Notes under the pieces: generated by a model
What the model saw: the letters and a program-made list of their open reading frames with translations, nothing else
Told to the model about the DNA's origin: nothing
Databases searched by the model: none
Shown: positions 1,065-59,644 of the stretch, piece after piece
How the letters are laid out: each line of letters begins with the position of its first letter
Position numbering within the stretch: position 1 is the first letter of the stretch
Position numbers and translations under genes: made by a program
From: Planctomycetota bacterium
Lineage (GTDB): Bacteria > Planctomycetota > UBA1135 > UBA2386
Direction: 5' to 3'
NCBI GenBank assembly: GCA_050245995.1
Contig: JBFWWV010000029.1
Coordinates: 14,652-78,651, forward strand
Length of the DNA stretch: 64,000 bases

Positions 1065-3131
<2,067 letters not shown>

Positions 3132-3214
3132 CGGCGGCGGCGATGATGGGACGCGCCACGGGTCGACGCCAGTCCTCGTTCGCCCCTCCACACGCGGTTG
3201 GTGGCAGACGACGG

Positions 3215-5695
3215 TCAGTAGGTCTCGAGCGTGTCGGCCAGCGTGTTCGTGAGCCGCAGCGCACCGGCGCCGTCGTCCAGCAGCGCCTGCACGTAGAACT
3301 GCACACCGCGCAGGGCCGACAGCTCCGGGATTGGCACGGTGATCCCCACCATGCGCCCGCTGGTCGGCGGCCCGAGCAGGGCCAGCTGCCACAGCGCCGC
3401 CGGGTCGATGCCCAGCGTACCGAACGGCGGCACCGCCGTCGCGCTCGGCGCGGCGCCGACGAGGATCGCCGCGCCGCCCAGCGCGCCGTGCACCTCGAGC
3501 GGATAGTCGCGGCCGCTGCGCAGCGGCAACGGCGCCAGCAGATGGCGGGTCAGGTTGGCGTACAGCGCGTGCTGACGCTCCATCAGGGTCAGGAGGTCCA
3601 GATCGCCGTCCCCGTCGAAGTCGGCGAGGAACTGGTCCGTGGCGCCCTGGGAGTCGATGGGAAGCGCATCGCCCCGCTGGCTGTAACGCATGTTCACGGG
3701 CAGCTCGTTCCAGACCATGGCGTCCCCCGGATGGTTGGGGCTCCGGTTGCCGAACACACAGTCGGGGTCGCCGTCGCCGTCGACGTCGCCGATCGCCAGG
3801 GTCTCGGTGTGGGTGAAGTACGAGTTCTGAACCTGGTGCAGCGCGAAATTGCCGAGGCCGTCGTTCAGGTGGTACGTCTCCCACGGGCCATCGTTGCTGG
3901 GGAAGCAATCGCCGCGACAGCCATTGGCGCAGACCAGGTCGAGGTCGCCATCGCCGTCGAGATCGACGGGCTCGACAACCAGGGAGCGGCCGTCGCCCTG
4001 CCCCTGCAGCTGCGACGGTGTGAAGACTCCTGCGCCGCCGTTGATGCGCAGCCAGGGATGCGCTCCGCCGCCGACGATGTCCAGATCGCCGTCGCCGTCG
4101 AGATCGCCCAGCGCCACGCTGGTGTCGGGGATGATGCTGCCGCCCAACTGCGCCGAGGCGTCGACGAACGCGAATGCAGGCGATCCGGCGGTCTGCCGGA
4201 ACAGTGCGTTGGGCAGGACGAGGTCTTGCAGCCCGTCGCCGTCGACGTCGCCGAACCGGCTCGGCAACTCCGTCAACCCCGGCGCTGCGATGTTCGCCTG
4301 CACGGTGAACGATGTCCCGTTGAAGGTCAGCAGGGACCAGGAACCGACACCGACGATCGCGACCTCGAGCTGTCCGTTCCCGTCGATATCGGCGACCGTG
4401 GGCCTTCCAGTCGGCATCCCACCGAGCTGCACGGCGTCGAAGCGGCCACGACCGTCGTTCCGCAGCAGCCAGCCGCCGCCGTCACAGGCGAGCACGTCGG
4501 GATCCCCATCGCCGTCGAAGTCCGCCACCGCCGTGCGCCGCGACGCGAGTCGGTCGAGATCGCCGCGTCGGGGCGAGGTGTAGCGGCCCGAACCGTCGTT
4601 GTACCATGTGCGCACTCCGAGTCCGCCGCCCCAGGACAGCAGGTAGTGGTCCGCCGAGCCGCTCCCTGTCAGGAGATCGAGATCGCCGTCGCCATCCGTG
4701 TCGATGGCTGCGATCGCGCTGACGATGCCGGCACCGAACGTCGACCAGGGCTGGAACGTCCCTCCGACATTGCGCAGCAGCACGCCGCCGTTCCGGCTGC
4801 CGAGCGCCAGGTCGACGTCCCCGTCGCCGTCGGCGTCCAGCGTCGCCACGGCGGCCCAGTCGTCCGCCGCCACCTGGAGCACCGAACTGATGTCGGCGAA
4901 GCGGCCCGTACCGTCGTTCTGCAACAGGATCGGCATGCCCGGCAGCAACGGGATACCGACCAGGTCGAGGTCGCCGTCCGCGTCGATGTCGGCGACGGCG
5001 TAGTCGGCCATGCCCGAAGCCCCCGCCGGCAGGTTGGTCGCGCTGACGTCGGTGAAGAAGCCGGTGCCGCCGTTCTGCAGCAGCAGCCCGTTCCAAATCG
5101 CGTCGTCGTCGCCGTCGCCGTCGAAGTCACCTGCAGCGATGGCAGCACCGCTGGCGGTCGCGGCGGGAAGGCGTCCTGACTCGCGCACGTAGGTCAGCTG
5201 GCCGCCAGAGACGACGCTGTGCAAGACCTGGGTCGACGTCAGGACGTCGGCCCGATTGTCACCATCGAGGTCGAGAACCGCGGTCTTGCTGGTCATCATG
5301 TCGAACGAACCCGGTCCGAAAGTGAGCGGCCCGCCGACATTCTGCAGCACGCTGTTCGTCCCCAGGATGTCCAGGTCGCCGTCGCCATCCACGTCGCCGA
5401 GGCCGCAGAAGAAGGCTCTCGTGGAGAGCTCGGTCCGGAACGTTCCGTCGCCGTTGCCCAGGTAGAGCACGGGCAAGCCGACGAAGTAGAAGGAGCCGAA
5501 GGAGGCGCTGCCGACCGCCACGTCGTCGAACCCGTCGCCGTTGATGTCGATGACGTAGAGCTCGTGCACCCGCAGCAGATCACGCGGGAACAGTTCGCGG
5601 TCCGTGTCCGCGAACCAGCGCTGCGCCAGCAGCGGCGAGGAGGCGAGCGCAACCACGATCAGAGCAGCGGCGGACGACACGAGACGGGCAAGCAT
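3215..5695 (-). CDS. Secreted FG-GAP/VCBS-repeat (integrin-like beta-propeller) protein with lineage-type C-terminal module
   Basis: Signal peptide, AAAGGAG RBS, 14 DxDGDGDxD-type repeats counted by eye. Confidence 0.85.
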   Translation of the reverse strand: MLARLVSSAAALIVVALASSPLLAQRWFADTDRELFPRDLLRVHELYVIDINGDGFDDVAVGSASFGSFYFVGLPVLYLGNGDGTFRTELSTRAFFCGLGDVDGDGDLDILGTNSVLQNVGGPLTFGPGSFDMMTSKTAVLDLDGDNRADVLTSTQVLHSVVSGGQLTYVRESGRLPAATASGAAIAAGDFDGDGDDDAIWNGLLLQNGGTGFFTDVSATNLPAGASGMADYAVADIDADGDLDLVGIPLLPGMPILLQNDGTGRFADISSVLQVAADDWAAVATLDADGDGDVDLALGSRNGGVLLRNVGGTFQPWSTFGAGIVSAIAAIDTDGDGDLDLLTGSGSADHYLLSWGGGLGVRTWYNDGSGRYTSPRRGDLDRLASRRTAVADFDGDGDPDVLACDGGGWLLRNDGRGRFDAVQLGGMPTGRPTVADIDGNGQLEVAIVGVGSWSLLTFNGTSFTVQANIAAPGLTELPSRFGDVDGDGLQDLVLPNALFRQTAGSPAFAFVDASAQLGGSIIPDTSVALGDLDGDGDLDIVGGGAHPWLRINGGAGVFTPSQLQGQGDGRSLVVEPVDLDGDGDLDLVCANGCRGDCFPSNDGPWETYHLNDGLGNFALHQVQNSYFTHTETLAIGDVDGDGDPDCVFGNRSPNHPGDAMVWNELPVNMRYSQRGDALPIDSQGATDQFLADFDGDGDLDLLTLMERQHALYANLTRHLLAPLPLRSGRDYPLEVHGALGGAAILVGAAPSATAVPPFGTLGIDPAALWQLALLGPPTSGRMVGITVPIPELSALRGVQFYVQALLDDGAGALRLTNTLADTLETY

Positions 5696-36991: not shown

Positions 36992-37378
36992 CTACATCCG
37001 CAGTGCGCGGCTGAAGGCCACCGCCTCGGCGCCGCACAGGGCGAAAGCGACGAGCGCGGCCCAGGGCCAGTGGCGGCCCAAGGCGCGGATCCCGGCGGTC
37101 AGGCCGGCCAGCAGCAGCAGCGTCGTCACGGCGGCGACGGCGACCATCCCGAGCGTGCCCTGCGTGAACGCCACCGCGGGCAGGATGCCGGGGCCGACCG
37201 GCGCCCACAGCAGGTACTGGCGCACGCAGTGGTCGCACTCGCGCAGCGGCCCGATCGCGAACGGCAGCAGCGCCGGCAGCCACAGCGCCAGCGCGGCGTG
37301 GCGCAGCGCCCGCGCGTTCGCCGGCGCCAGGCCGATCCAGCGCAGCGGCAGCCAGCCGCGCACCGGCGCCGGGCTCAC
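36992..37378 (-). CDS. Small membrane protein with CxxC
   Basis: GTG overlapping upstream TGA; RECDHC; hydrophobic helices. Confidence 0.6.
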   Translation of the reverse strand: MSPAPVRGWLPLRWIGLAPANARALRHAALALWLPALLPFAIGPLRECDHCVRQYLLWAPVGPGILPAVAFTQGTLGMVAVAAVTTLLLLAGLTAGIRALGRHWPWAALVAFALCGAEAVAFSRALRM

Positions 37379-38916
37379 CACTTCTTCATCGCGTCGATCC
37401 ACGCCTTCTCCAGCGCCGACCAGTCGGTGTCGGTGAACGTCTTGTCGAACGCCTTCTCCTGGATCTCGAAGCGCAGCGCCATGATCCAGTCCTTGGGCGC
37501 GTCCTCGGGCATCTTCGCGCGGTACTCGGCGGTGATCTCGCGCAGGTTCTTCAGGTAGGTGTCGGGGATCGCGCCCCACTCCTTGTTGCCCTTGGGATCC
37601 TGCCGCTCCTCCTCGAGGAAGTGGCAGAACGCCCACGCGAACGCGTAGTTCTGGTAGACGCTCGGCCCGTAGAAGTCGGGCTGCGTCATCTTGACGAACG
37701 CGCGCAGGTCGGGCCAGCCGCCGCTCTTCTTGCTGCGCTTGATCCACGTCATGCGGCCGCGGTTCTTCTCGATCTTCTTGACCTCTTCCTTGCGGCGGTC
37801 GAGCACCGCGCCCGCGAACACCTCGCCGAAGCCCTCGTTGAACCACGACGCCGGCGCCAGCATGCCGTTGGCCTCGTGCAGGTACTGGTGCATCGCCTCG
37901 TGGTACAGCACCTCGGCGGTGTCGACGTCCTTCAGCCACTCGCTGCGCTTGGGGATCTTCTTGCCCGGGTCGAACAGCACCAGCTCGTCGTCGAGCGGCG
38001 AGAAGTGGCCGATCGCGCCCGGCAGCTTGCCGTACGCCGCGTACTCCTCGTAGCTCTGGAACACGCGCACCAGCGACACCGCCTCCATCGCGTTGATCGG
38101 CGGGAAGCGCTCGGTGTAGCACTTCCGCATGATCTCGAGGTCGGTCAGCAGACCCTTGACCACCTTGCCGTTCTTGCAGTTGGTGATCAGGATGAAGTTC
38201 TCGGTGTCGTAGGCGTCCCAACCCTGCTGCATCTTCTGCCGCACCTGGCGGCGGAAGTCGGGGTTGCGCAGTGCGGCGTCGACGGGCGCGTCGCCGACGT
38301 TCTGGTCGGGCAGGAAGAACTCGAGGCTCTCGGCGATCTGCTCGAGCAGCCGGTCCCAGTGCTTGTCGCGCGCGCCGAGCCCGATCAACCCGAACTCCTC
38401 GATGCCGTCGGTGGCGAGGTAGGCCCGCAGGAACGGCTGGCCGCTGTAGCTGCCGTCGAACACGCGCGCCTCGGTGCCGTCCTTGAACTTGATCGGCTTC
38501 TCGGTGCTGGGCTCGGTACTGTACGTGCCCTCGCGGAAGCGCAGGTCGAGCAGTTCCTGCAGCGAGTGCGCCTTGTTGTAGGCCTCGGCCGCCCGGTCCT
38601 TGAGCGACTGCGGCTTGTCGCCGGCGCTGTCGGTGCCTTCGCCCCCCTCGTCGTCGCCGCCGCCACCTCCGCCGCCGGTCGTTATGCCGGCCGCCTTGCG
38701 ATAGCGCACGATCCAGATGGCGCGGTGGTGATGGCGACCGTCGTCGTCGACCTCGATGCGGAACTTGCCCTTGACGATCCGATCCTTGGGATCGGGCGTC
38801 TCGTCGAGGATGTCGCGCGGGAGCTTGAGCCGGAACCCTTGCGGGCTCTCGTAGACCTTCCCCTGGGCGAGAACGGGCGCGCACAGGAGCGCCACCGTCA
38901 GTGCTGTGCGGAGCAT
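37375..38916 (-). CDS. Secreted DUF1570-like putative metallopeptidase
   Basis: Signal peptide MLRTALTVALLCAPVLAQ; LYHEAMHQY (HExxH), WFNEGFGE, YAFAWAFCHFL. Confidence 0.8.
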   Translation of the reverse strand: MLRTALTVALLCAPVLAQGKVYESPQGFRLKLPRDILDETPDPKDRIVKGKFRIEVDDDGRHHHRAIWIVRYRKAAGITTGGGGGGGDDEGGEGTDSAGDKPQSLKDRAAEAYNKAHSLQELLDLRFREGTYSTEPSTEKPIKFKDGTEARVFDGSYSGQPFLRAYLATDGIEEFGLIGLGARDKHWDRLLEQIAESLEFFLPDQNVGDAPVDAALRNPDFRRQVRQKMQQGWDAYDTENFILITNCKNGKVVKGLLTDLEIMRKCYTERFPPINAMEAVSLVRVFQSYEEYAAYGKLPGAIGHFSPLDDELVLFDPGKKIPKRSEWLKDVDTAEVLYHEAMHQYLHEANGMLAPASWFNEGFGEVFAGAVLDRRKEEVKKIEKNRGRMTWIKRSKKSGGWPDLRAFVKMTQPDFYGPSVYQNYAFAWAFCHFLEEERQDPKGNKEWGAIPDTYLKNLREITAEYRAKMPEDAPKDWIMALRFEIQEKAFDKTFTDTDWSALEKAWIDAMKKW

Positions 38917-38964
38917 CGGGGCGCGATCGTCCAGCGCCGGGTCGCGAGGGGCAAGGGGGTCACC

Positions 38965-39345
38965 CCCCGTGCCCGTGCCGCGCCCGCCCCCGCCCCCGCC
39001 CCCGCCCCGTTCCCGTTCCCGTGCCCGTGCCCGCGCCCGTGCCCAGCGGCGCGAAGCGCCGCGGTGCCCAGGCCGCGCGCAGCGCGGCCGGTGCCCGCGC
39101 GCGCGCAGCGCGCGCTGGTGCGAAGGGCGCAATCGCCAAGCGCAATCGCGGGTCGCAATCGCGCCGCACGATCGCGCCGCACGATCGCGCCGCACGATCG
39201 CGCCGCACGATCGCGCAAGGCGCTCCAGCCCGCGCTCCGCGCGGGCGGGCACCGGCGTGCGTGCTCCGCACGCACGCCTGGGCACGGGCACGGGCACGGG
39301 CACCGGCGCGCTGCGCGCGCCTGGGCACGGGGCGCGCTGGCGCGC
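38965..39345. repeat. Palindromic element family A, copy 2, with internal 13-bp tandem repeat x4
   Basis: Same GTGCCC/hairpin and GGGCAC/hairpin arms as copy 1; GCGCCGCACGATC x4 at 39161-39212. Confidence 0.88.
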
Positions 39346-43535: not shown

Positions 43536-44085
43536 CACCTCCGGCGCGGCCGGGGAGCGCCAGGCCGCCGCATTCCTGCGGCGCGCCGGCTACCGCCTGG
43601 TCGCCGCCAACCTGCGCACCGTGCACGCCGAGATCGACCTGCTGGTCCGCCGCCGCCGCACCGTCGTCGCGGTCGAGGTCAAGGCACGCCGCCACCACCC
43701 CGCGCCCGAGCGCCACGTCGACGGCGTCCGCCTCGATCGCCTGGGCCGCGCCCTGTGCGCCCTGGCACCGACGCTCCATCCGCGCCCGCGGCGGCTGCGC
43801 GTCGACGTCGTCGCCGTGCGCTGGCCCGACGCCGGCACCCAGGGTGTCGAGATCGTGCACGTACCGGGGCTGCGCACGTGGACCTACGACTCGATCGGAG
43901 CCAGAGCTTCGTCGAGCGCGGGCTGGCTTCCTGCCGATACCGGCGGATATGCAGGTCCCCCCGCGAACGCCGCCGCTGCCGTGCCCGGCCGGTGCGGTCG
44001 CGTCGTCCGCCTGCTGCTCGCCCCCCTGCGCAAGCTGCTCGGCCTGCCGCCGCTGAGTCGAGCCGTCCCGTCATGCCGTCGCTGA
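43489..44085 (+). CDS. yraN: YraN (UPF0102) family protein; start uncertain
   Basis: GAAGERQAAAFL..GY..AEIDLL..VAVEVK..RVDVVAV. Confidence 0.75.
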   Translation: MTAPRRRAAATSRRPDTSGAAGERQAAAFLRRAGYRLVAANLRTVHAEIDLLVRRRRTVVAVEVKARRHHPAPERHVDGVRLDRLGRALCALAPTLHPRPRRLRVDVVAVRWPDAGTQGVEIVHVPGLRTWTYDSIGARASSSAGWLPADTGGYAGPPANAAAAVPGRCGRVVRLLLAPLRKLLGLPPLSRAVPSCRR

Positions 44086-45518
44086 CCGAACAGATGATCC
44101 CGCGCCGCAAGCTGCTGCTCATGGGCAGCGAGTGCCTGCTGCTGACGGCGATCCTGTTCTTCGGCTCGAGCGTGCCGCCGCTCGCGGTGCGACCGCTGAC
44201 CGACGTGCCGTGGTACCCGGACCTGCTGCGCGGCGCGCTGACCAGCCTGACCATCGCGATCATCTGCCAGACGTCGCTGTCGTACAACGACCTGTACGAC
44301 TGGCGCACGGCGCAGAACCGCGCCGAGCTGCCCAACCGCCTGCTGCACGCCTGCGGCTACTCGCTGGTGATGCTCGCCGTGCTGGTGGTGCTGCTGCCGC
44401 GGCTGTTCTACTTCTCGAGCCTCGACGTCGCCGCGCAGACCTGGAAGCTGATCCTGCTGCTCGGCGTCGCGTTCGCGGCGATCTGGGGCTTCCGCCACGC
44501 GTTCCACTGGTTCTTCTACAAGTGGCGTTTCGGCGAGCGCGTGCTGGTGCTCGGCGCCGCCGAGGAGGCGCAGGCCCTGGCGCAGATGATCGCCGCCAAC
44601 CCGCTGGCCGGCTACGAGCTGATGGGCCTGGTGCAGGAGACCGACGACCCGGTGCCGCAGTTCAATCCCGACACGCCGGTGCACCTGCGCGTGGTCGGCG
44701 CGCTGCGCGACCTGCGCAAGCTGTGCGACCGCGAGGGCATCGCCCGCGTCGTCGTGTCGCTGCGCGAGCGCCGCGGCCGCGTGCCGATCGAACAGCTGCT
44801 CGACTGCCGCATGGCCGGCATCACCGTCGAAGAGCGCGAGACGATGTACGAGCGTCTGACCGGCAAGCTCGCCGTCGAGAGCATGCGGCCGAGCTACCTG
44901 ATCTTCGGCAGCGGCTTCGCGCGCGACCCGGTGACCCTGGCGCTCAAGCGCGTGCTCGACATCGTCGCGTCCTTCCTCGGCCTCGTGCTGTCGCTGCCGC
45001 TCAGCATCCTGGCCGCGATCGCCATCAAGCTCAGCAGCCGCGGACCGGTGCTGTTCACCCAGGAGCGCGTCGGCCAGGACGGCGAGCTGTTCCGCGTGAT
45101 GAAGTTCCGCACCATGCGCGTGGACGCCGAGAAGGAGTCGGGTCCCGTGTGGGCTTCGAAGAACGACGACCGCATCACCTTCGTCGGCAAGTTCCTGCGG
45201 CTCACGCGCATCGACGAGATCCCGCAGTTCCTGAACATCCTGACCGGCCACATGTCGTTCGTCGGCCCCCGCCCCGAACGCCCGCACTTCGTCGAGCAGC
45301 TGACCCAGGCGCTGCCGTTCTACCCGCTGCGCCACACCATCAAGCCAGGCCTGACCGGCTGGGCGCAGGTGTGTCATCCGTACGGCGCGTCGGTCGAGGA
45401 CGCGACCGAGAAGCTGCGCTACGACCTGTACTACATCAAGAACGTCAGCCTGCTGTTCGACCTGAACATCATCCTCAGGACGATCGGCGTGATCCTGCTG
45501 GGCAAGGGCGCGCGGTAG
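44073..45518 (+). CDS. Polyprenyl glycosylphosphotransferase (WcaJ/PEP-CTERM-type sugar transferase)
   Basis: N-terminal TMs; KRVLDIV, QERVGQDG, KFRTM, DDRITFVGKFLR..RIDEIPQF, GPRPERP, KPGLTGWAQV, DLYYIKN. Confidence 0.95.
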   Translation: MPSLTEQMIPRRKLLLMGSECLLLTAILFFGSSVPPLAVRPLTDVPWYPDLLRGALTSLTIAIICQTSLSYNDLYDWRTAQNRAELPNRLLHACGYSLVMLAVLVVLLPRLFYFSSLDVAAQTWKLILLLGVAFAAIWGFRHAFHWFFYKWRFGERVLVLGAAEEAQALAQMIAANPLAGYELMGLVQETDDPVPQFNPDTPVHLRVVGALRDLRKLCDREGIARVVVSLRERRGRVPIEQLLDCRMAGITVEERETMYERLTGKLAVESMRPSYLIFGSGFARDPVTLALKRVLDIVASFLGLVLSLPLSILAAIAIKLSSRGPVLFTQERVGQDGELFRVMKFRTMRVDAEKESGPVWASKNDDRITFVGKFLRLTRIDEIPQFLNILTGHMSFVGPRPERPHFVEQLTQALPFYPLRHTIKPGLTGWAQVCHPYGASVEDATEKLRYDLYYIKNVSLLFDLNIILRTIGVILLGKGAR

Positions 45519-45960
45519 CAGACATGCTGCGGCGCAGGCAGGCGCGCGGAGCGCGCCTGCGCGCCGCGCGCGCGGACGCGGTCCGCGCGCCGGAGGCGAC
45601 CGACGACACGGGTGCGGGGGCGCAACACCCGCGACGAGCGCATCCGCGCAGAAGGGGAACGCATCTGCTCCGGGGCCGCCGCGGCCGGTCCGGCTGGCAC
45701 GCGCCGCGCCGCGTTCGGCATCCGCGAGGCGAAGCAACGGACGCGTCACGGCGCGTGCGGGCCGGCCCGGGCCGCTGCTGCGGCCACGACGTTCGGGCTG
45801 GGTCGCGCTTTGCGCCCCGCGAAGACGGGGGGCGCAAAGCTGAATACCAAGAGCGGGGACGCGACGGGAACACAACCGCCCAGCTCGCGGCTTCGGCTCG
45901 CTCGCTGACGCTCGCTCGCGCGCCGCGGCATCCGATCGGCCTTTGGCGGCGTCGCTGCGG
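45519..45960. repeat. Family C element, copy 1
   Basis: Begins CAGACATGCTGCGGCGCAGG right after the TAG; homologous along ~430 bp to both arms at 48548-49410. Confidence 0.85.
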
Positions 45961-46326
45961 CGCGGAGTGGCGCCGTGGTGTCCTGTCGGCTCGAGGCGGC
46001 CGCAGGGGCGGCTGTGGAGGTGCCAGCGTCGCTCGATCGTGGAGCAGAGCCGGTCGAGGTGGCAGCCATCGCCGAAGTTGCGGAGATCGGGCTCGGCTGT
46101 GCGGTGCACGCCAGCACGACGAGGTCCTGGTGGATCGCCGGCGCATGCCGATCCAGCTCCGAGACCTCCGCCCACGGCTCGCAGGCGGACAGCACCAGGA
46201 TCGGCTGGAAGGACACCCGCAGGGAGCGACGCATGTCCCGCGTTCGCAACCGCCGTTCCAGGGGCACAAGGGCCGCCTTGCGGACCGGTTTGGATATGGT
46301 GCCGCCACCTGACCCAGGAGGAAGTC

Positions 46327-48525
46327 ATGATGCAGACCAGTTCCGACCCGACACGCCGCGTGGACGCTCGTCGGCCGCACCCTGGTGCCTGCTTCGCGGC
46401 AGCGATCCTGCTCGCTTCGACCGCGAGCGCGCAGCGGACTTGGGCACGGCCGACGCAGATGCAGTCGCCGACCGAGGCGTCGGTCCTCGCCTACGACCCC
46501 GCGCGACAACGCACGGTCATGTACCAGGTCTGGAATGGCTTCCCCAGCGAGACCTGGGAGTGGGACGGCGTGCGCTGGCAGCCGACCGCGGTCGGTGGTC
46601 CGGCCGGGACCAGCCCTGGGATCGGAGCCGACCCGATGGCGTGGGAGTCCACCTCGGGCCACATGTTCATGATCTCCAACTCACAGCTGTGGGAGTACGA
46701 CGGGGCGGCCTGGACCCAGAAGCCGCAAGCACAGCCGTTCGGCAGCCGACTCGTCAGTGCCGGTGGCATCCTCTACCGGACCGAACAGGCGCCTGGCGGG
46801 GGATGCTTCAGCTTTCGTCCAGAGCACGTCGTGTCGCAGTGGGACCCGGCCTTGCAGACCTTTGTCCGCACCGCCGGCACGTGCGCGGACGTTGTCGGCC
46901 ACGCTGGCTTGTTCGTCGACTACGGCGGCCAACTCGCGTTCGTCGGCTGGACCAATACAGCTCTGGGTCAGGTCTACCTGGTCGCACACGGCGCAACCAA
47001 CCCGCCGTGGACACCGATCGGCGCGCCACTCGGGTTGAACCCCAATGGTGTCGCCATGTTGGCGTACGACTCCAGCGCCGGTCACTTGCACCTCTACGCC
47101 ACATACCAACCACAGCACTATCGCTTCGACGGCGTTGGATGGTCCCCGGTCTCTCCGGGCTCGCTGCCGCCCGGCGATCCGGGGTTCGGCGTGCCCTACC
47201 ATCTGGCCTATGACGCCGCGAGAGCGCGCATGGTCCTGTTCCTGCCGACGACCAACGAGACCTGGGAGTTCGATGGCGCAGCCTGGTCGCGTCGCGACGT
47301 CGGCCTGGCCAAGGACATCTCGTTCGCCAGCATGACCCATGACGCGCTGCACAACGAGACGGTCCTGTTCGGCTCGGTGTCTTCAGGCGACGAGACCTTC
47401 CTGTGGCGCGGCGATCGCTGGCGTCGGGCCGAGCCGTCGACGCGGCCACCGGGGCGCGCTGCCCCGCTCATGGTCTTCGACCGCTCGCGGAACACCGTGC
47501 TGCTGCACGGCGGCAGTTCGACCACCAGTCAACGGAACGACACGTGGGAGTGGAACGGAACCGACTGGACCGACCGATCGCCGCCGCCGGCGCTGCGACC
47601 TCCGCTGCGAATCGCGGGGACGACCTCGATGGCGTTCCACGATTCCACCAGCACAGCGATCCTGTTCAGCGGCACGAACCCCTCGACCGCGACCGCCCTC
47701 GGCGACACCTGGGAGTGGAATGGCACCAACGGCACGTGGACGCAGCGCTTCCCTGCAGGCCCGACACCGGGAGCACGTTTCGGTCACGTGATGACCTACG
47801 ACGTCGCGAACAGTCGCATCCTGTTGTTCGGCGGCGGCAGCTCGGCGACGCCATTCTTGATCGACACATGGGGCTGGGATGGCACCACGTGGACGCAGCT
47901 GAGCGCCACGGGTCCTGGCAACACCTTCCGCCAACTCGGCTACGACCGCGACCGCGGCATTGCGATTCTGTTCACCAACAACGGGACGGGACCGGTGGCG
48001 ACGTGGGAGTTCGACGGCATCACTTGGCAGCCCGTCGCCGCGACCAACGAGCCCGGCGGCGGGGCGTGTCGCGTGGGGCTCCCGACCTACGAGGACTCGC
48101 GCCGCCAGCTCTTGACGGTGACTGCGGTCTATGGCTCCAACGGTTCTGCACGCCTCGAGACCTGGATCTACCTGCCCGTGCCCCCCGGCCCCTACGGCAC
48201 CGGCTGCGCCGGCACCGGCGGCCTCGTGCCGCAGCTGTCGGTGACCGGCCGCCTCGACGTATCGCTGCAGCAGGCACTGCCGTCGTCGCTGGCGATCCTC
48301 GGCTTCGGCATCCAGCGAGCCAGCTTCCCGCTGCTCGGCTGTTCGCTGCTGATCGATCCGATCTTCCGCACCGACCTGCTGTTCCTCGACGGCACCGGTG
48401 CGGCGGGGACCTCGCTGCCGGTGCCGTTCGACCTCGCGGGCGTCGTGACGTTCCAGGCGGCGGTCTTCGACGCCGCGGCGCCCGGCGGCCTGTCGTTCAG
48501 CAACGCGGTCGAAGCCCGATTCTGA
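46327..48525 (+). CDS. Secreted Kelch-like repeat beta-propeller protein with GxGC..GC..SN C-terminal module
   Basis: AGGAGG RBS; signal peptide; about 12 TWEWDG/TWEFDG-type blades; more A/T-ending codons than neighbours. Confidence 0.85.
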   Translation: MMQTSSDPTRRVDARRPHPGACFAAAILLASTASAQRTWARPTQMQSPTEASVLAYDPARQRTVMYQVWNGFPSETWEWDGVRWQPTAVGGPAGTSPGIGADPMAWESTSGHMFMISNSQLWEYDGAAWTQKPQAQPFGSRLVSAGGILYRTEQAPGGGCFSFRPEHVVSQWDPALQTFVRTAGTCADVVGHAGLFVDYGGQLAFVGWTNTALGQVYLVAHGATNPPWTPIGAPLGLNPNGVAMLAYDSSAGHLHLYATYQPQHYRFDGVGWSPVSPGSLPPGDPGFGVPYHLAYDAARARMVLFLPTTNETWEFDGAAWSRRDVGLAKDISFASMTHDALHNETVLFGSVSSGDETFLWRGDRWRRAEPSTRPPGRAAPLMVFDRSRNTVLLHGGSSTTSQRNDTWEWNGTDWTDRSPPPALRPPLRIAGTTSMAFHDSTSTAILFSGTNPSTATALGDTWEWNGTNGTWTQRFPAGPTPGARFGHVMTYDVANSRILLFGGGSSATPFLIDTWGWDGTTWTQLSATGPGNTFRQLGYDRDRGIAILFTNNGTGPVATWEFDGITWQPVAATNEPGGGACRVGLPTYEDSRRQLLTVTAVYGSNGSARLETWIYLPVPPGPYGTGCAGTGGLVPQLSVTGRLDVSLQQALPSSLAILGFGIQRASFPLLGCSLLIDPIFRTDLLFLDGTGAAGTSLPVPFDLAGVVTFQAAVFDAAAPGGLSFSNAVEARF

Positions 48526-48547
48526 CCCGTACCGGCGATCGCCGCGG

Positions 48548-49410
48548 TCCTGCTGCGACGCAAGTTCGGGCGCTACGCGCCCTCGCGCGCCGCGCGCGCG
48601 CACGCGGTGCGCGCGGCAGAGGCGACTCACGTCAAGGGCAGGGACGCAACACCCGCGACGGACGCATCCGCGCAGAAAGGAAGCCATCCGCGCGGGGACC
48701 GCAACGGCCGGTCCGGCTGGCACGCGCCGCGCCGCGAAAGCGCATCCGCCAAGTTGACCAACGGGCGCGTCACGGCGAGTGCGGGCCGGCCCTTGGCCGT
48801 TGCTGCCAGCCGACGCTCCAAGCGTCCCCGCGGCTTTCGGCCCGCCAAAGGCGGGGGCCGAAAGGCAACAGCTACCAGAAGGAGACCAACCGACCAGGAA
48901 GACCACCGACGTTCTCGCGGCTTCGGCTCGCTACGCTCGCGCGCCGCAGCATCCGCAGAGAACCTCGGCGCCTCGTTCTCCGAGGTTCCCCGCGGATGGC
49001 GCGGCGCGCGAGGGCGCGCAGCGCCCGAGCCGAAGCCGCAAGAGCGTCGGCTGCGTTCCTCTGCGTGTCGGCCTCTGGGTTCCATGTGCCTTTCGGCCCC
49101 CGCCGTTGGCGGGCCGAAAGGCTCGACCCCGCGCGAGCGTCGGGGCCGGAGCAACGGCCTGGGGCCGGCCCGCACTCGCCGTGACGCGCCGGGGATGCTT
49201 GAACTCGCGGATGGCCGGTCGCGGCGCGGCGCGTGCCAGCCGGACCGGCCGTTGCGGTCCCTGGCGGATGGCTTCCTGTCTTCTCGGTTGCGTTGGTCGC
49301 GGGTGCTGCGTCCCTGCCCTTGACGTGATTCGCCTCTGGCGCGCGCACCGCGTGCGCGCGCGCTGCGCGCGCGGGCGCGCAGCGCCCTCGCTTGCGCCGC
49401 AGCATGTCTG
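48548..49410. repeat. Family C head-to-head doublet (about 860-bp imperfect inverted repeat)
   Basis: e.g. 48601 CACGCGGTGCGCGCGGCAGAGGCGACTCACGTCAAGGGCAGGGACGC pairs with its near complement at ~49310-49363; centre ~48960-48990. Confidence 0.92.
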
Positions 49411-49416
49411 TATGGT
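49411..49416 (+). promoter_or_regulatory. -10 box TATGGT for the serA operon, leaderless configuration
   Basis: 6 nt before ATG 49423; abuts the family C terminal repeat. Confidence 0.5.
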
Positions 49417-49422
49417 CCTCCA

Positions 49423-51015
49423 ATGACCTACCGCATCCTCGTCGCCGACGACCTCGCCGAAGACGGCCTCGCATTGCTGCGCGCCGCCGGCGAGGTCACC
49501 GTGCAGAAGGGCATGAACGAAGACGCCCTGCGCGAAAAGCTGCCGGGCTACCACGCGCTGGTCGTGCGCTCCGCGACCCAGGTGACGGCGCGGTCGCTCG
49601 AGCTGGCCGACGAGCTGGCGCTGATCGGACGCGCGGGCATCGGCGTCGACAACATCGACGTGCCGGCGGCGACGGCGCGCGGCATCGTGGTGATGAACAC
49701 GCCCGAGGCCGGCGCGATCACGACGGGCGAGCACGCGCTGTCGCTGCTGCTGTCGCTGGCGCGCAACATCGCGGCGGCCGACGCGTCGGTGCGCGCGGGC
49801 AAGTGGGAGAAGAGCAAGTTCACCGGCGTGGAGCTGACCGGCAAACAGCTCGGCGTGCTGGGCCTGGGCCGCATCGGCCGGGTGGTCGCCGAGCGCGCGC
49901 GCGGGCTGGGCATGCTGATCGCGGCCTACGACCCGTTCGTGACGCCGGCGAACGCGCCGCCTGGCGTGCGCATGCTCGACCTCGGCGAGCTGCTGGCGAC
50001 GTCGGACTTCGTCACGGTGCACGTGCCGCTGGCCGACGACACGCGCGGGCTGCTCGGCAAGGAGCAGCTCGCGGCGATGAAGCGCGGCGCGCGGCTGGTG
50101 TGCGCGGCGCGCGGCGGCATCGTCGACGAGCCGGCGCTGTGCGCGGCGCTGGCGTCGGGCCACCTGGCGGGCGCGGCGCTCGACGTGTTCGCGCAGGAGC
50201 CGCTGCCGATGGACAGCCCCCTGCGGCAGGCGCCGAACCTCGTGCTGACGCCGCACCTCGGCGCCAGCACGCACGAGGCCAAGCACAACGTCTCGGTCGA
50301 GATGGCGAAGCAGGTGGCGCTCTGCCTGCAGAAGGGCGTCGCGCTGAACGGCGTCAACGTGCCGCGCATCGCGCCGAGCGACGCGCAGCAGGTGGGCCCC
50401 TACCTCGCGCTGGTGCAGAACCTGGCGACGTTCCTGGTGCAGGCGTTCCCGGGCCAGCTGAAGTCGCTGCGGCTGACGGCCCAGGGCGGCATCCCGGAGT
50501 CGTCGCTGGCGGCGCTGCGGGCCGGCATGGTGGTCGGCGCGCTGAAGCCGAGCACCACCGGCGCGGTGACGCCGGTCAACGCCGAGCGCATCGCCAAGGA
50601 CCGCAACGTGCGCGTGTTCGCCGAGGCCAGCTCGCTGAAGCGCGACTTCATGAACCTGGTGCGCGTCGAGGCGCTGCTCGGCGACGACCGCCACTTCGCC
50701 ACGGGCACGGTGCTCGGTCACCGACACGGCCGGCTGGTCGAGCTCGACGACTACGTGCTCGACGCGATCCCCGAGGCGCCGATGCTGGTGACGTTCCACG
50801 CCGACCAGCCCGGCGTGGTCGGCAAGCTCGGCACGCTGCTCGGCGACGCCGGCATCAACATCTCGCGCATGCAGATCGGCAAGCCGGTCGACGCCGGCGC
50901 GATGGCGCAGACGCCGTCGGTCGCGATCCTCAACCTCGACCAGCCGCCGCCCGACCCGCTGCTGACCGCGATCCGCGCCCTGCCGGCGATGCAACGCGCC
51001 GCGCTGGTGCGGTGA
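49423..51015 (+). CDS. serA: D-3-phosphoglycerate dehydrogenase (with C-terminal ACT domain)
   Basis: LVVRSAT, GRAGIGVDNIDV, GVLGLGRIG, TPHLGASTHEA, DQPGVVGKLG..INISRMQIG. Confidence 0.96.
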   Translation: MTYRILVADDLAEDGLALLRAAGEVTVQKGMNEDALREKLPGYHALVVRSATQVTARSLELADELALIGRAGIGVDNIDVPAATARGIVVMNTPEAGAITTGEHALSLLLSLARNIAAADASVRAGKWEKSKFTGVELTGKQLGVLGLGRIGRVVAERARGLGMLIAAYDPFVTPANAPPGVRMLDLGELLATSDFVTVHVPLADDTRGLLGKEQLAAMKRGARLVCAARGGIVDEPALCAALASGHLAGAALDVFAQEPLPMDSPLRQAPNLVLTPHLGASTHEAKHNVSVEMAKQVALCLQKGVALNGVNVPRIAPSDAQQVGPYLALVQNLATFLVQAFPGQLKSLRLTAQGGIPESSLAALRAGMVVGALKPSTTGAVTPVNAERIAKDRNVRVFAEASSLKRDFMNLVRVEALLGDDRHFATGTVLGHRHGRLVELDDYVLDAIPEAPMLVTFHADQPGVVGKLGTLLGDAGINISRMQIGKPVDAGAMAQTPSVAILNLDQPPPDPLLTAIRALPAMQRAALVR

Positions 51016-53011: not shown

Positions 53012-53836
53012 ATGGGCCTTCGCATCAACAGCAACATCCCTTCCCTGACCGCGCAGCGGAACCTGGCGAAGATCACCGACATCCTCGCCGGCCACTACCG
53101 GCGGCTGTCGACCGGTCTGCGCATCAGCACCGCAGCCGACGACCCGGCCGGGCTGGCGATGTCGGAGCGGCTGCGCGCGCAGATCCGCTCGCTCGACCAG
53201 GCGAGCCGCAACGCCCAGGACGGCGTGTCGTTGGTGCGCACCGCCGAGGGCGCGCTCGACGAGGTCAGCTCGATGATGGGCCGCCTGCGCGAGCTCGCGG
53301 TGCAGTCGTCGAACGGCACCCTGTCGCAGGCCGACCGCGACACGCTGCAGCAGGAGTTCGGCGAGCTGGTGCAGGAGATCGACCGCATCGCGCAGGGCAC
53401 CGAGTTCAACGGCATCGCGCTGCTCGACGGCACCGGCGGCCAGATCACGTTCCAGGTCGGCGGCGGCACGTCCGCGGCCGACGGCATCGCCGTGCAGCTC
53501 GGCTCGGCGCGCACCAGCGACCTCGGCCTCGCGACCCTCGACATCAGCTCGACCGGCGGCGCCAGCACCGCGATCTCCGCCATCGACCAGGCCACCGACA
53601 GCGTGTCGACGCTGCGCGGCCGCTACGGCGCCACGCAGAACCGGCTCGACTCGGCGACGCGCTACCTCGGCGTGCAGCGCGAGAACCTGTCCGCCGCCGA
53701 GAGCCGGATCCGCGACGTCGACGTCGCCTACGAGACGGCGCAGCTGGCCAAGGCGCAGATCCTGCAGCAGGCGACGATCGCGATCCTGACGCAGGCCAAC
53801 GCACAGCCGCAGCTGGCCCTGCGCCTGCTGGCCTGA
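53012..53836 (+). CDS. fliC: Flagellin (minimal, 274 aa)
   Basis: LRINSN, RLSTGLRISTAADDPAGLA, NAQDGVSLVRTAEGAL, TEFNG, RGRYGATQNRL, AESRIRDVDVA, AQANAQP-like end; GGAGG RBS. Confidence 0.95.
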   Translation: MGLRINSNIPSLTAQRNLAKITDILAGHYRRLSTGLRISTAADDPAGLAMSERLRAQIRSLDQASRNAQDGVSLVRTAEGALDEVSSMMGRLRELAVQSSNGTLSQADRDTLQQEFGELVQEIDRIAQGTEFNGIALLDGTGGQITFQVGGGTSAADGIAVQLGSARTSDLGLATLDISSTGGASTAISAIDQATDSVSTLRGRYGATQNRLDSATRYLGVQRENLSAAESRIRDVDVAYETAQLAKAQILQQATIAILTQANAQPQLALRLLA

Positions 53837-53856
53837 GCCGGGCACCGGGGACACAG

Positions 53857-54350
53857 CGCTCCCTGCTCCGCGCGACTCCCGGTGCTTTGGGTGCCCGTCC
53901 GGCCTTCTCGGGGCACTCCAGAGGAACAGGGAGAGCACGGAGAGCATCAGGAGAGGCACAGAGCAGAAAGCAACCGACCACGCCAGCACTGCCGCCCAGC
54001 CAGAGCAATCGCACGGAACGCGAAGCATGCGCGCACCGCTCGGTCCTCGACGCCTTGGTGGATGCCTCAGCTGGGCGGCTGCTTTCTGCTCTGCGTCCTC
54101 GGTGCCCTCTGTGGTTCCTTCTCTGGTGCGCGGATGCGCTCGTGCCGCGTGACGGCCCCCAGAGTCGAGCGCTTTCTGCTCCGTGCACCTCCCGGTGCTC
54201 TTCGTGCTCTCCCTGTTCTGCGTCCGGGAGTACCCCAGAAGAAAAACCACAGAGGACACGGAGAGCACGGAGCAGAAAACAACCGACTACGCGAGACCCG
54301 CCGCCCAGCCAAGGCAGAGGCACCGAAGGAGATCGCGCGTTCCTGCCGTC
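53857..54350. repeat. Palindromic element family B, copy 4
   Basis: 54040-54230 is the reverse complement of the 35145-35335 unit; core GGGAGTACCCCAGAA at ~54226-54240. Confidence 0.9.
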
Positions 54351-54378
54351 GAGCTGCTGGGTGGTGGTTCTCTGCTGT

Positions 54379-55956
54379 TCAGTCCACCGCGGCCGCGCGC
54401 GCGGCCTGCACCGCCGCGTCCGCCTGCAGCAGGCCGTTGCCGGTCACCGGGTCGGGGCCGGGTTCGCCGAGGTCCTTGCAGGTCGCCGTCATCAGCTGCT
54501 GCACGCGCCACGGCGTGAGTTCGGGATTGGCGTGAAGCATCAGCGCCGCGACCCCGGCGGCGTGCGGGCCGGCGAACGAGTTGCCGCGCGGTCCCTCGAT
54601 CAGGCCGTAGCCGGCCTCGTCCTGCCAGCGCACCTCGGCGCGCCCGCGCGCGACGGTGGCGCGGTGCCACACCGGGAACTCCATGCAGCACGCGGTGACG
54701 TCGGGCTTCTGCAGCGGCGCGTTGGCCGGATAGTCCTCGAAGAACGGCACATCGTCCCAGGTGCACGGGCCGCGGCTGCTGAACGGCGGCACCGCGCCGT
54801 CGCGGCCGACGCCGGCGGCGGCGATCACGCACGGGATGTCCTTCGGCAGCGCGATCTGCCGCCCCTCGGGCTCGCTGCGCCCGAAGTTGCCGGCGCCGCC
54901 GACGGCGACGACGCCGCACGCGGCCAGGTGTTCGTGCGCGGTCCGGAACACGCCGCGGTAGGAGCCTAGCTCGCCGCCGACCCACATGTAGCTCATCGAC
55001 ATCACCTGGGCGCCCATGCTGGCGGCGTACTCGTAGGCGGCGAGGCGCCCCATGCCGCGCAGCACCATCAGCCGCGCGCGCGGCGCGACGCCGGTGACGG
55101 TGCGCGGCGCCCCCCACGGCCGCCCGGCGACGATGCCGCCGCACATGGTGCCGTGCGACTGCGCGCCGTCGCCGACGACGAAGCGCGTGTCGCCGTCGAA
55201 GTCCCAGCCGAACAGGTCGTCGACGAGGCCGTTGCCGTCGTCGTCGACGCCGTTGTTGGTCTCGCCGGGGTTCTGCCACAGCGCGTGCACCAGCGGCTCC
55301 ATCGGCAGCACCCCGCTGTCGAGCAGCGCCACGACGACGCCGTCGCCGGTGGCGCCGAGCGCCCAGGCCGCAGGCGCCCGCACCGTCTCGAGGTTCCACG
55401 GCACCTCGCACCCGGCCGGATCGAATGCGCCCTCCTGGCCGCGCGCCGCCAACAGGTCGAGCGCCCGCACCTCGTCGATGGCGCGTTCGCCGAGCCAGCG
55501 CTCGGGTCGCTCGTTGTGGCGGTGCTGGCTGCCGCGCTCCTGCCGGTGCACGAACGCGACGCCGGGGAGCCGGCGCAGCCGCGCCACCGCCGCGCCGGTC
55601 GCGTCGGCGGCGAAGCCGTTGACGATCCAGAACCGCCGCACCGCGGTCAGGTCGCCGGCGTCCTCGAGTTCCGCAACCGCGGTCGCGAGGTCGGCCCACG
55701 CCGCTTCGGCGCGCCGGTGCAGCTCCGCCAGCGCGTGCGCCCGCACCGCGGTGCGCCCGGCCTCGCCCTGCGCCGCGCAGAACCGCGGATAGGCCGCGCC
55801 GTCGGCGAACAGCTGGTCGCGCATGCGCACGAACACGGGCTGTGGCCGTTCGGCATCCGCGAGCCCCGGGTCGACGGGCGCAGCGTCCTGCGCGCGACCG
55901 AACCCCGCGATCAGCAACGCCACGAGCCCAATCGGCCACCACACGGGTCTGCGCAT
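54379..55956 (-). CDS. Secreted S8 (subtilisin-like) serine peptidase
   Basis: Triad VALLDSG / HGTMCGG / GNSFAGPHAAG; oxyanion GAGN; NNGVDDDGNGLVDD insert. Confidence 0.9.
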   Translation of the reverse strand: MRRPVWWPIGLVALLIAGFGRAQDAAPVDPGLADAERPQPVFVRMRDQLFADGAAYPRFCAAQGEAGRTAVRAHALAELHRRAEAAWADLATAVAELEDAGDLTAVRRFWIVNGFAADATGAAVARLRRLPGVAFVHRQERGSQHRHNERPERWLGERAIDEVRALDLLAARGQEGAFDPAGCEVPWNLETVRAPAAWALGATGDGVVVALLDSGVLPMEPLVHALWQNPGETNNGVDDDGNGLVDDLFGWDFDGDTRFVVGDGAQSHGTMCGGIVAGRPWGAPRTVTGVAPRARLMVLRGMGRLAAYEYAASMGAQVMSMSYMWVGGELGSYRGVFRTAHEHLAACGVVAVGGAGNFGRSEPEGRQIALPKDIPCVIAAAGVGRDGAVPPFSSRGPCTWDDVPFFEDYPANAPLQKPDVTACCMEFPVWHRATVARGRAEVRWQDEAGYGLIEGPRGNSFAGPHAAGVAALMLHANPELTPWRVQQLMTATCKDLGEPGPDPVTGNGLLQADAAVQAARAAAVD

Positions 55957-56001
55957 GGCGCCAGCATGCCGAACCGACGACGAGCCGGCGAGCCCGGAGT
56001 G

Positions 56002-58105: not shown

Positions 58106-59644
58106 ATGGTCCGCACCCATTTCGCCGTGGCCACCGTTCTGCTGGGCCTCGCGCTCGCCCGCAATGCGGCGTCCCAGACCCTGCAGCAGACCGTGCTCGC
58201 CACCCAGCTCGACAGCCCGGTGGCGATGGCGCTGGCGCCCGACGGCCGGGTGTTCGTCGCCCAGCAGGGCGGCGCGGTGCGCGTGATCGAGGACGACGTG
58301 CTGCTGCCGCAGCCGTTCGTCGTCGTGCCGACGATCGCCAACGACGAGGAGGGTCTCGTCGGCATCGCGCTCGACCCGCAGTTCGCGCAGAACGGCTTCG
58401 TCTACCTGCGCGTCACGACGCAGACGCCGACCCGGCACAACCAGATCGTGCGCTACACCGCCAGCGGCGACGTCGCCGTCGCCGGCAGCGAGCTCGTGCT
58501 GTTCGACCTGGACACCAACCAGGCGCACTTCCACCTCGGCGGCTCGCTGCGGTTCGCGCCCGACGGGACGCTGTTCTTCGCCACCGGCGACAACGACACG
58601 CCGTTCTTCGCCGGCAACCTCGGCAGCCTGCACGGCAAGATGCTGCGCATCCGCAGCGACGGCACGATCCCGACCGACAACCCGTACTTCGGCACGCTGT
58701 CCGGCCGCCTGCGCGCGATCTGGGCGCACGGCTTCCGCAACACGTTCTCGTTCGCCATCCACCCGCAGACCGGCCGCGTGTTCGCCAACGACGTCGGCAG
58801 CAGCCAGTGGGAGGAGATCAACGACGTGGTCGCCGGCGGCAACTACGGCTGGCCCGGCAACGAAGGCCCGGGCGGCGCGGCCGGCACCACCGACCCGCTG
58901 TACGCCTACGACCACCAGAGCCTCGGCGGCGGCTGCGCCGTCACCGGCGGCGCGTTCTACGCGCCGACGACGCCGCAGCTCGGCGCGCAGTACCCGGGGC
59001 AGTACCTGTTCTGCGAGTACTGCCGGGCCGAGATCCGCGCCCTGGACCCGGCGGCGCCGACCGGCCACACGCGCGTGGTGACCTGCGACGTCCGCGGTCC
59101 GGTCGACCTCGCGGTCGCCGCCGACGGCGCGCTCTACTATCTGGCGCGCGGCAACGGCGCCGGTTCGGGCGGCACCGGGATCCGCTTCGGCGCGCTGGTC
59201 AAGGTGACCGCGCCCGGCGCCTTCCTGCCGACGTTCACGACCTTCGGCGACGGTTGCGTCGGCACGGCGGGCGTGCCCGCGCTCGCGGCCAACGGCGCGC
59301 CGCGGCTGGCGACGCCGGGCTTCCAGGTGCTGCTCGCCAACGTGCTGCCGTCGACGCTGGTCGCGCTGCAGCTCGGCCTCAGCAACACCGCCTGGGCGCT
59401 CGGCCCGCTGCCGCAGGATCTGGGCGTGGTCGGCATGCCCGGCTGCCTGCTGCGCACCAGCGGCGACCTCACGCTGGCGCTGTTCCACGGCGCCGGCAGC
59501 ACCGCGACGATCCCGCTCGGCATCCCCAACGACGCGTCGATGCTCGGCATCCCGGTGCACATGCAGGGCTTCGCGGTCGACTTCGCCGCCAACCCGTTCG
59601 GCGGCGTGGTGTCGGGCGGCGCGACCCTGCGCGTCGGCACCTGA
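58106..59644 (+). CDS. PQQ-dependent sugar dehydrogenase (GSDH family) with GxGC..GC C-terminal module
   Basis: EEGLVGIALDPQF, HLGGSLRFAPDG.LF..TGD, GKMLRI..DG.IP.DNP, HGFRN, WEEIN..GGNYGWP. Confidence 0.9.
   Translation: MVRTHFAVATVLLGLALARNAASQTLQQTVLATQLDSPVAMALAPDGRVFVAQQGGAVRVIEDDVLLPQPFVVVPTIANDEEGLVGIALDPQFAQNGFVYLRVTTQTPTRHNQIVRYTASGDVAVAGSELVLFDLDTNQAHFHLGGSLRFAPDGTLFFATGDNDTPFFAGNLGSLHGKMLRIRSDGTIPTDNPYFGTLSGRLRAIWAHGFRNTFSFAIHPQTGRVFANDVGSSQWEEINDVVAGGNYGWPGNEGPGGAAGTTDPLYAYDHQSLGGGCAVTGGAFYAPTTPQLGAQYPGQYLFCEYCRAEIRALDPAAPTGHTRVVTCDVRGPVDLAVAADGALYYLARGNGAGSGGTGIRFGALVKVTAPGAFLPTFTTFGDGCVGTAGVPALAANGAPRLATPGFQVLLANVLPSTLVALQLGLSNTAWALGPLPQDLGVVGMPGCLLRTSGDLTLALFHGAGSTATIPLGIPNDASMLGIPVHMQGFAVDFAANPFGGVVSGGATLRVGT

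Follow-up and report, generated by a model that had tools for sequence, protein, structure and literature searches.

A lineage-specific insertion with a Kelch gene between copies of a non-coding repeat in an uncultured Planctomycetota bacterium

The block between the sugar-transferase gene and serA

We analysed a stretch of 64,000 nucleotides (hereafter the window; contig JBFWWV010000029.1 of assembly GCA_050245995.1) from an uncultured Planctomycetota bacterium, whose genome assembly comprises 6.37 Mb in 45 contigs and is 93% complete. At positions 45519-49410, the window contains a 3.9-kb block that separates a sugar-transferase gene from serA and carries a gene for a Kelch/beta-propeller protein between copies of a non-coding repeat, which we call C. 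An initial annotation had read this block as a non-autonomous composite element, in which cargo was bounded by miniature inverted-repeat transposable elements (MITEs) built from a previously undescribed repeat. Below, C1, C2 and C3 are the three C units of the block, and names such as contig C1 or contig C7 refer to genome contigs.

The sugar-transferase gene (44073-45518, plus strand; Bac_transf, PF02397, E = 7e-67) lies in an open reading frame (ORF) that is open from 43755 and ends with a TAG stop at 45516-45518. Its C-terminus (...GKGAR*) is kept in relatives, where the stop is mostly TGA. The DNA directly before the block ends in ...GGCGCGCGGTAG, and the left end of the block abuts the TAG, as initially annotated, leaving 0 nt of native spacer. 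The first repeat, C1 (45519-45935, plus strand; nhmmer model positions 2-415, E = 1e-105), is a solo unit that starts with its head at 45519 and is of the young main lineage (f1-type). It is followed by a leader of 391 bp (45936-46326), which had been counted as about 370 bp of unexplained DNA and which ends in AGGAGG, the ribosome-binding site of the Kelch gene. This gene (46327-48525, plus strand; 732 aa; Pfam Kelch families) is the cargo of the block. C2 (48547-48958, plus strand; model positions 3-417, E = 4e-79) has its head 21 nt past the Kelch stop, and C3 (48990-49410, minus strand; model positions 2-417, E = 9e-83) has its head at 49410. They form the left and right arms of a divergent doublet with a short centre (48959-48989), at the place where canonical doublets have a conserved spacer of 142-150 bp. 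The doublet had been called head-to-head, but by the polarity of the repeat it is tail-to-tail, with the heads outward. The right end of the block lies 12 nt before the ATG of a full-length serA gene (D-3-phosphoglycerate dehydrogenase; 49423-51015, plus strand; Pfam 2-Hacid_dh_C, 2-Hacid_dh, PGDH_inter and ACT), and at most those 12 nt could be native spacer.

The initial annotation also placed a -10 box of serA at this right end. The adjacency to serA was correct, but the box was not: TATGGT is a lone hexamer that is not conserved in relatives, and a promoter scan revealed no sigma-70-like site in 45400-49600. C2 and C3 together were predicted to fold as a hairpin of ~860 nt (-781 kcal/mol, z = -32) that ends just before those 12 nt. 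Such a hairpin upstream of an essential biosynthetic gene raises the question of how serA is transcribed.

The inverted 20-mers at the two ends of the block, CAGACATGCTGCGGCGCAGG at 45519-45538 and the reverse complement of 49391-49410 (CAGACATGCTGCGGCGCAAG), were identical at 19 of 20 positions, as first described. When up to three mismatches were allowed, these two were the sole matches in the window, against a chance expectation of 0.08, and two matches occurred in none of 100 shuffles of the sequence. The similarity extends far beyond the 20-mers. It covers 94 nt at 81% identity and the whole ~415-nt unit (~420 nt) at ~78%. Since the match covers ~415 nt, the "terminal inverted repeats" amount to the outer ends of two homologous C units in opposite orientation. 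The flanks read GGTAG / block / TATGG and show no clean target duplication, and head-to-head joining of the outer ends would read ...CACCGCAGCATG/CATGCTGCGGTG.... No transposase domain was found in the block, and apart from the Kelch gene the tested ORFs had no Pfam match. The lack of a transposase and of a clean target duplication had been noted in the initial annotation.

The block is a lineage-specific insertion into the spacer between the sugar-transferase gene and serA. Twelve relatives had both genes on the retrieved stretch, with sugar transferases 61-86% identical to that of the window. In all 12 (L015-L018, L098, L099, L102-L106 and L109) the two genes are adjacent, 35-115 bp apart, and the whole block is absent from the orthologous site. 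In the four closest ones (L098, L099, L102 and L103; sugar transferase 83-86% identical) the spacer measures 43-64 bp. None of the relatives had the Kelch gene here in the absence of C units.

The Kelch cargo looks foreign by its composition. Its GC content at third codon positions (GC3) is 0.85, compared with 0.97-0.98 in the flanking genes and a genome mean of ~0.95-0.96, which bears out the atypical codons of the initial annotation and ranks the gene among roughly the bottom 5% in the genome. As DNA, the Kelch gene and the leader are each single-copy in the genome. The closest Kelch homologue from any source shares 49% identity and has other genes around it, and the best paralogue within the genome is 39% identical. 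Kelch proteins of this type form a large expanded family in these bacteria. The frame-specific GC profile gave a weak coding-like GC3 signal on the minus strand of the leader (~46030-46250), and the ORF there had neither a Pfam match nor a homologue. We also considered that the leader might be a relative of the sigma-like gene beside the closest Kelch homologue, but the two proved to be unrelated.

The C repeat family

A profile of the C family was built from full-length copies, and the genome was searched with it by nhmmer. The search gave 67 matches, corresponding to ~65 units. As nine of the contig ends fall inside C units or no more than ~0.7 kb from one, the true copy number is probably higher. 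A C unit is ~415 nt long, non-coding and rich in GC-rich hairpins. An example of the conserved core is GCGCGGACGCGGTCCGCGCGCC. The consensus of the terminus is (C)AGRCATGCTGCGGTGCAAGC, which is common to units elsewhere in the genome. The outermost 5-9 nt of the heads, before the CTGCGGTGCAAGC core, differ between copies.

The dominant form of the family is a convergent inverted doublet of ~975 bp with the heads outward. Thirteen canonical doublets are 85-95% identical over 975 bp, including the spacer, and share the same polarity, with an f1 arm, the conserved spacer and an f2 arm. The f2 arm differs from the f1 arm mainly in its last ~150 nt, and the two arms are ~80% identical. Head-to-tail tandem arrays were found on contigs C9 and C36 and at contig C7:204211, and truncated copies also occur.

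Some of the derivatives deserve description in their own right. Contig C14:44555-45855 has five tandem 189-bp partial units (model positions 4-192; array 44555-45441) followed by one full unit, and the breakpoint of these partial units recurs at contigs C2:128-314 and C10:1-194. The site near position 195 and the tail of C both resemble an inverted head motif. It seems that the C unit may be built from two modules of ~200 nt. A mini-palindrome of ~120 bp (contig C1:239857-239976), which directly follows a TAG stop, consists of just two inverted C heads (model positions 4-84) and has the size of a REPIN, a doublet of repetitive extragenic palindromic (REP) sequences. Three contig ends (C7:1-404, C18:1-422 and C31:51550-51970) share a C variant in which a lower-GC sequence (...TCTCACAGAACCGGACTTGTGGATCGCACATCCGG...GGACCGGTGTC) takes the place of the last ~120 nt, and there the assembly stops. 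This variant may represent a junction with a further repeat, or else a doublet whose centre is a perfect palindrome. Neither the repeats at contig ends nor the three ends sharing the variant revealed a coding partner of C. The family is also of practical concern, as it breaks the assembly at the nine contig ends and yields long spurious ORFs.

No C units were found in 90 other genomes of the same taxonomic family, which represent 40 other genera. The nhmmer scan of metagenome loci, which took in L098-L130 and left out L015-L018, was also negative, even for the relatives with 83-86% identical sugar transferases. The conserved core had no match among viral contigs. Judged from these sequence comparisons, the C family is a recent, lineage-specific expansion restricted to one Planctomycetota species. 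The initial annotation was right that the repeat is a real multi-copy family, and its being undescribed holds within a limited literature check and an Rfam scan, which found no published description.

Of the heads, 47 are free, with neither a further unit nor the end of a contig beside them. In 33 of these, a well-supported gene ends at a stop codon that lies between -7 and +37 nt from model position 1, mostly within 8 nt. The genes that end at C heads always read into the head. Seventeen of these 33 stops are TAG, a codon that makes up 20% of stops genome-wide (binomial P = 5e-5). The closest relatives end the sugar-transferase gene with CGC-TGA or CGC-TAA, and the window has CGG-TAG and then directly the head. 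GTAG precedes many heads even where it is not a stop codon (e.g. contigs C34:28229 and C14:144924). At contig C7:111634-112607, a canonical doublet wholly fills a convergent gene junction that measures ~30-70 bp in relatives from ten other genera. No consistent target duplication was found at other copies of C. We considered a TA target duplication of the IS630/mariner type, in which the first G of the element would restore TAG, and rejected it because the flanks were inconsistent across 14 doublets and no DDE_3 gene was found.

These positions would also suit units that are not mobile at all, but are RNA structures of 3' untranslated regions or terminators, or bidirectional terminators, selected by the host and lying beside the Kelch gene by chance. 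The heads follow stops and are oriented so that transcription enters them, the doublets replace the short spacers of convergent genes, which are usual sites of terminators, the predicted structure is extreme, and a few stems have compensatory changes. The pairing statistics, however, are equal on the two strands, so that RNA structure is not separable from DNA hairpins. A permissive Rfam scan of 45300-49700 gave only a sub-threshold plant microRNA model on the central hairpin, with 33 bits against a gathering score of 140. The presence of some 65 copies of 85-95% identity in a single species, against none in the 90 other genomes, implies a recent burst rather than an ancient function, and arrays of full or partial units and truncated copies do not suit such a function either. 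Moreover, the head of C3 faces the start codon of serA and not the end of a gene. We therefore regard this explanation as very improbable. A role as terminator or RNA is unlikely to be the origin of the family and may be a consequence.

Recurrence, age and assembly of C-bounded cargo

Further blocks were found by a search for inverted pairs of heads and then by inspection of solo units. DNA of foreign composition between outward C heads recurs at two, probably three, other loci. The block at contig C7:204211-207190 has two tandem C units on the left and an inverted head remnant of ~25 nt on the right, and its cargo encodes an extracytoplasmic function (ECF)-type sigma factor (GC3 0.88) and a leucine-rich repeat (LRR) protein (GC3 0.84). 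In five other genera its two flanking genes (GC3 0.99 and 0.97) converge directly on each other, which represents the empty site. At contig C1:213669-214952, diverged arms on both sides enclose a small HEAT-like ORF or fragment (GC3 0.89). The block at contig C2:7198-13946 begins with a head remnant of ~32 nt, encodes a VWA protein, a small secreted protein, an ECF sigma factor and a Ser/Thr kinase (GC3 0.82-0.87), and ends with a full C unit and ~40 nt of canonical spacer. In a permissive gene call, genes with GC3 below 0.90 make up ~10% of the genome. Across the four blocks, all eight ends have their heads outward. No transposase domain was found among the cargo genes.

We also observed that the VWA protein (contig C2:7267-8784, minus strand) ends in a Cys-containing C-terminal module of ~120 aa. 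To the eye, this module is similar to the one at the C-terminus of the Kelch protein (window 48183-48525).

The units at the two ends of the Kelch block belong to different sublineages. C1 is ~88% identical to main-lineage copies (contigs C9, C22 and C11) and ~78% to C3, and C2 shares 81% identity with C3 and 72-77% with the other members. In the tree, C1 groups with units at contigs C7:204211, C7:204612 and C2:317 (support 0.90). C2 and C3 pair as sisters (support 1.0) and branch off deeply; the arms of the HEAT block are a deep sister pair as well. The tree distances are 0.62 between C1 and C3, 0.26 between C1 and the unit at contig C7:204211, and 0.32 between C2 and C3. Mosaic or recombinant arms were considered and rejected, as sliding windows gave C1 as uniformly main-lineage and C2 and C3 as uniformly divergent. 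C1 and C3 share a rare C for T at position 15, which in C1 goes along with a compensatory change in the first stem. Because C1 is of a young lineage and C3 of a deep one, the 19/20 match reflects conservation of the family terminus and not a recent common arrival. By divergence and tree position, the two ends of the block differ in age and are not a matched pair.

We hold with moderate confidence that the block is a case of recurrent repeat-bounded cargo, a lineage-specific insertion that would have been assembled in at least two steps. In the first step, a foreign segment would have arrived, made up of the leader and the Kelch gene and, probably, the gene's own divergent 3' doublet (C2-C3). 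C2 lies just past the Kelch stop, as is the rule in the family, and both C2/C3 and the Kelch gene appear foreign, so they probably arrived together. In the second step, this segment would have been joined to a resident main-lineage C element or would have landed in its centre, and C1 would be the remaining arm. C elements would provide portable long inverted ends, or homology, at the 3' ends of genes. DNA might be gained at the centre of C by recombination or repair at the centre of the palindrome or between C copies. Alternatively, it might be mobilised in trans by an enzyme encoded outside the element. Neither route would make a target duplication. Such stepwise assembly agrees better with the data than the hypothesis of a MITE-bounded composite moving as a unit. 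That initial proposal is partly supported: the repeat-bounded insertion and the recurring cargo speak for it, while the ends are not a matched pair, and no target duplication, second copy or autonomous element was found.

The composite might nevertheless be a single non-autonomous transposon, in which 45519-49410 was inserted as a unit and its termini of ~20 nt were recognised in trans. The insert starts and stops at the two outer heads, and outside them native spacer amounts to 0 nt (left) and 12 nt (right). Two of the other blocks have at one end just a head remnant (25-32 nt), which would be enough for an enzyme that recognises the terminus, and all block ends have the same outward orientation. 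Even the 78% identity of C1 and C3 still allows a pair, as the arms of canonical doublets are only ~80% identical. Against this stand the placement of C1 in a young lineage and of C3 as sister to C2 in a deep one, and the internal arm C2, which is left unexplained, together with the lack of a target duplication and of a second copy. The genes found in the genome do not help this explanation either.

A six-frame search of the genome gave no match to the Y1 transposases that include the REP-associated tyrosine transposases (RAYTs; PF01797), while control genomes did match. Genes of the IS630 type (DDE_3, PF13358), rve (PF00665) and IS110 (PF01548) are also absent. The sole DDE_Tnp_1 (PF01609) gene, at contig C27:27226-28617, has no C-like inverted ends. 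Three loci with IS91-like Y2 genes (PF04986) were found, at contigs C26:1063-3216, with the Y2 protein encoded at 1954-3216, C2:81142-82719 and C13:5690-5869, and they have neither C-like ends nor sequence similarity to C units. Apart from these and the DDE_Tnp_1 gene, the search of seven families detected no classical transposase gene. An autonomous element with the same termini, which the initial annotation proposed to look for, was not found in the genome: searches with the head motif and for inverted head pairs up to 6 kb apart gave only C units and cargo blocks, and no pair encloses a transposase. In view of all this, we consider insertion as one transposon unlikely. The present data establish the insertion, the anatomy of the family, the recurrence of cargo and the different ages of the ends; movement as a single unit, driven by some enzyme, is a hypothesis. 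Two side observations concern the IS91-like elements. A 296-aa unannotated ORF precedes one of the Y2 genes, and an end piece of ~400 bp of the element on contigs C2 and C13 has five extra copies on contig C12.

Several observations weigh against the stepwise assembly of repeat-bounded cargo. The block is also present in the only other assembly of the species (GCA_050247215.1; 99.95% identical), so that no presence/absence polymorphism is known, and in the genome the block and the Kelch cargo each occur once. There is thus no direct sign of mobility. No target duplication was found at the block, and the outermost nucleotides of the heads vary. The flanking genes of the block on contig C2 are not neighbours in relatives and give no empty site for comparison. 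Compared with the closest syntenic relative, L098, the window has three further lineage-specific insertions, at 36992-38997, 53024-56001 and 58112-59644, with no C unit at their edges. We estimated that ~0.3-0.7 gene-flanking head pairs would be expected by chance at ~40 C loci; relative to this, three to four C-bounded cargo blocks are suggestive, not overwhelming. C repeats and new genes could each simply accumulate at permissive junctions.

These points would suit a coincidence, in which the Kelch gene was acquired by an unrelated process and C1 and C2/C3 later colonised the two new intergenic spacers. The habit of the family, with 33 of 47 free heads at stops, by itself accounts for C1 at the sugar-transferase stop and for C2 just past the Kelch stop, and independent colonisation would also agree with the different ages of C1 and C2/C3. 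Across the wider family the junction itself is variable: the sugar transferase is followed by a different gene in L100 and L101, and serA is missing from this position in L113, L115 and L126. However, a coincidence would have to be repeated at three to four loci, always with the heads outward, the tails towards the cargo and low GC3 inside. Almost no native spacer remains on either side of the block, and C2/C3 diverge deeply, in keeping with the foreign composition of the Kelch gene, which suggests a joint arrival. As four blocks with low GC3 and all eight heads outward make unrelated events improbable, we find this explanation doubtful.

Some details of the variable loci are worth recording. 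At L100:6036-8219 (and equally in L101), an unrelated gene without a Pfam match takes the place of serA beside an 85% identical sugar transferase, and the DNA just past the stop carries a ...CGCGGCGCCGCGGCATC... motif that recalls the C tail. The junction after the sugar transferase may be a hot spot in several lineages. The three further insertions in the window include a flagellin gene with a convergent S8 peptidase gene, and a PQQ-type dehydrogenase gene.

If C-bounded blocks serve new genes as a vehicle or docking site, they would offer a route of gene gain in a phylum poor in classical transposases. The mode of insertion would then be unusual, at the 3' ends of genes, abutting stops, favouring TAG, free of duplication and displacing the native spacer. 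If the association is a coincidence, what is left is a new lineage-specific family of intergenic repeats beside an acquired gene. A bolder proposal, which we put forward tentatively and think unlikely to hold in full, is that C is an undescribed transposase-less gene-capture element of Planctomycetota. It would be a foldback of ~1 kb with hairpin-rich arms of ~410 nt, integrating at the first bases past stops with a TAG bias and no target duplication, and replacing short spacers or terminators. Its centre would carry accessory modules (ECF sigma factors, kinases and secreted propeller or VWA proteins). Mobilisation would depend on a hairpin- or single-strand-dependent enzyme encoded elsewhere (e.g. 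an IS91-like Y2 enzyme) or on host recombination at the palindrome.

Comparison with known systems

Mobile insertion cassettes (MICs) are known from Bacillus cereus, among other bacteria. They have terminal inverted repeats of the insertion sequence (IS) type around passenger genes and no transposase, as in the MICs that bear qnrD (PMC3913671). The likeness to the present blocks lies in accessory passengers without a transposase between inverted ends, and in copies of the ends without cargo in the same genome. Passengers between element-type inverted ends were found in the Kelch, sigma/LRR, HEAT and VWA/sigma/kinase blocks. However, the ends of MICs are short IS termini with a recognisable cognate IS and a target duplication, whereas the Kelch block has hairpin-rich arms of ~410 nt from different sublineages, no duplication and no cognate IS that we could find; each cargo is single-copy. 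Composite transposons consist of two transposase-encoding IS copies with a target duplication; C units are non-coding and make no duplication.

Like MITEs, C is non-coding, multi-copy, intergenic and found in one species, with conserved termini and truncated or tandem derivatives. A MITE, however, is a short element with inverted ends of 15-40 nt, while C propagates as a 975-bp foldback with arms of ~410 nt. The target duplication and the parent IS of MITEs have no counterpart in C, as no parent IS was found in the 93%-complete genome, which has hardly any classical transposases.

GTAG-tagged REPs are associated with RAYT transposases in the REP/REPIN system (PMC3733652). C shares with it the extragenic palindromes just past stops, the inverted doublets, the arrays and the lack of target duplication. 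(G)TAG likewise precedes many C heads, although it is there largely the stop codon of the neighbouring gene. REPs measure 20-40 nt, with a GTAG or CGTC tag, against ~415 nt for C, and the genome has no PF01797 gene. To our knowledge, REPINs do not carry genes. The arms of C are about 10 times longer than the ends of MITEs or REPs.

Elements of the IS91, ISCR and Helitron groups make no target duplication, have hairpin-bearing ends, form tandem head-to-tail copies and capture adjacent genes. C resembles them in all these respects, and three Y2 loci are present in the genome. Unlike C, these elements are without long inverted arms, and the Y2 loci share no sequence with C; a link between C and IS91-type Y2 enzymes is pure conjecture.

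Eukaryotic foldback elements have long inverted arms and a variable centre, and the pdif modules of Acinetobacter plasmids are gene modules between inverted XerC/D recombination sites with no transposase of their own. These occur in other organisms and have other sequences, and no XerC/D-like 28-bp site was recognised; the likeness is an analogy only. Integron cassettes carry an attC site of 57-141 bp past the ORF and go with an IntI integrase and attI; C units are unlike attC in size and sequence. The C family is thus not assigned to the MIC, MITE, REP/REPIN or IS91-type families, to which it is closest in concept only.

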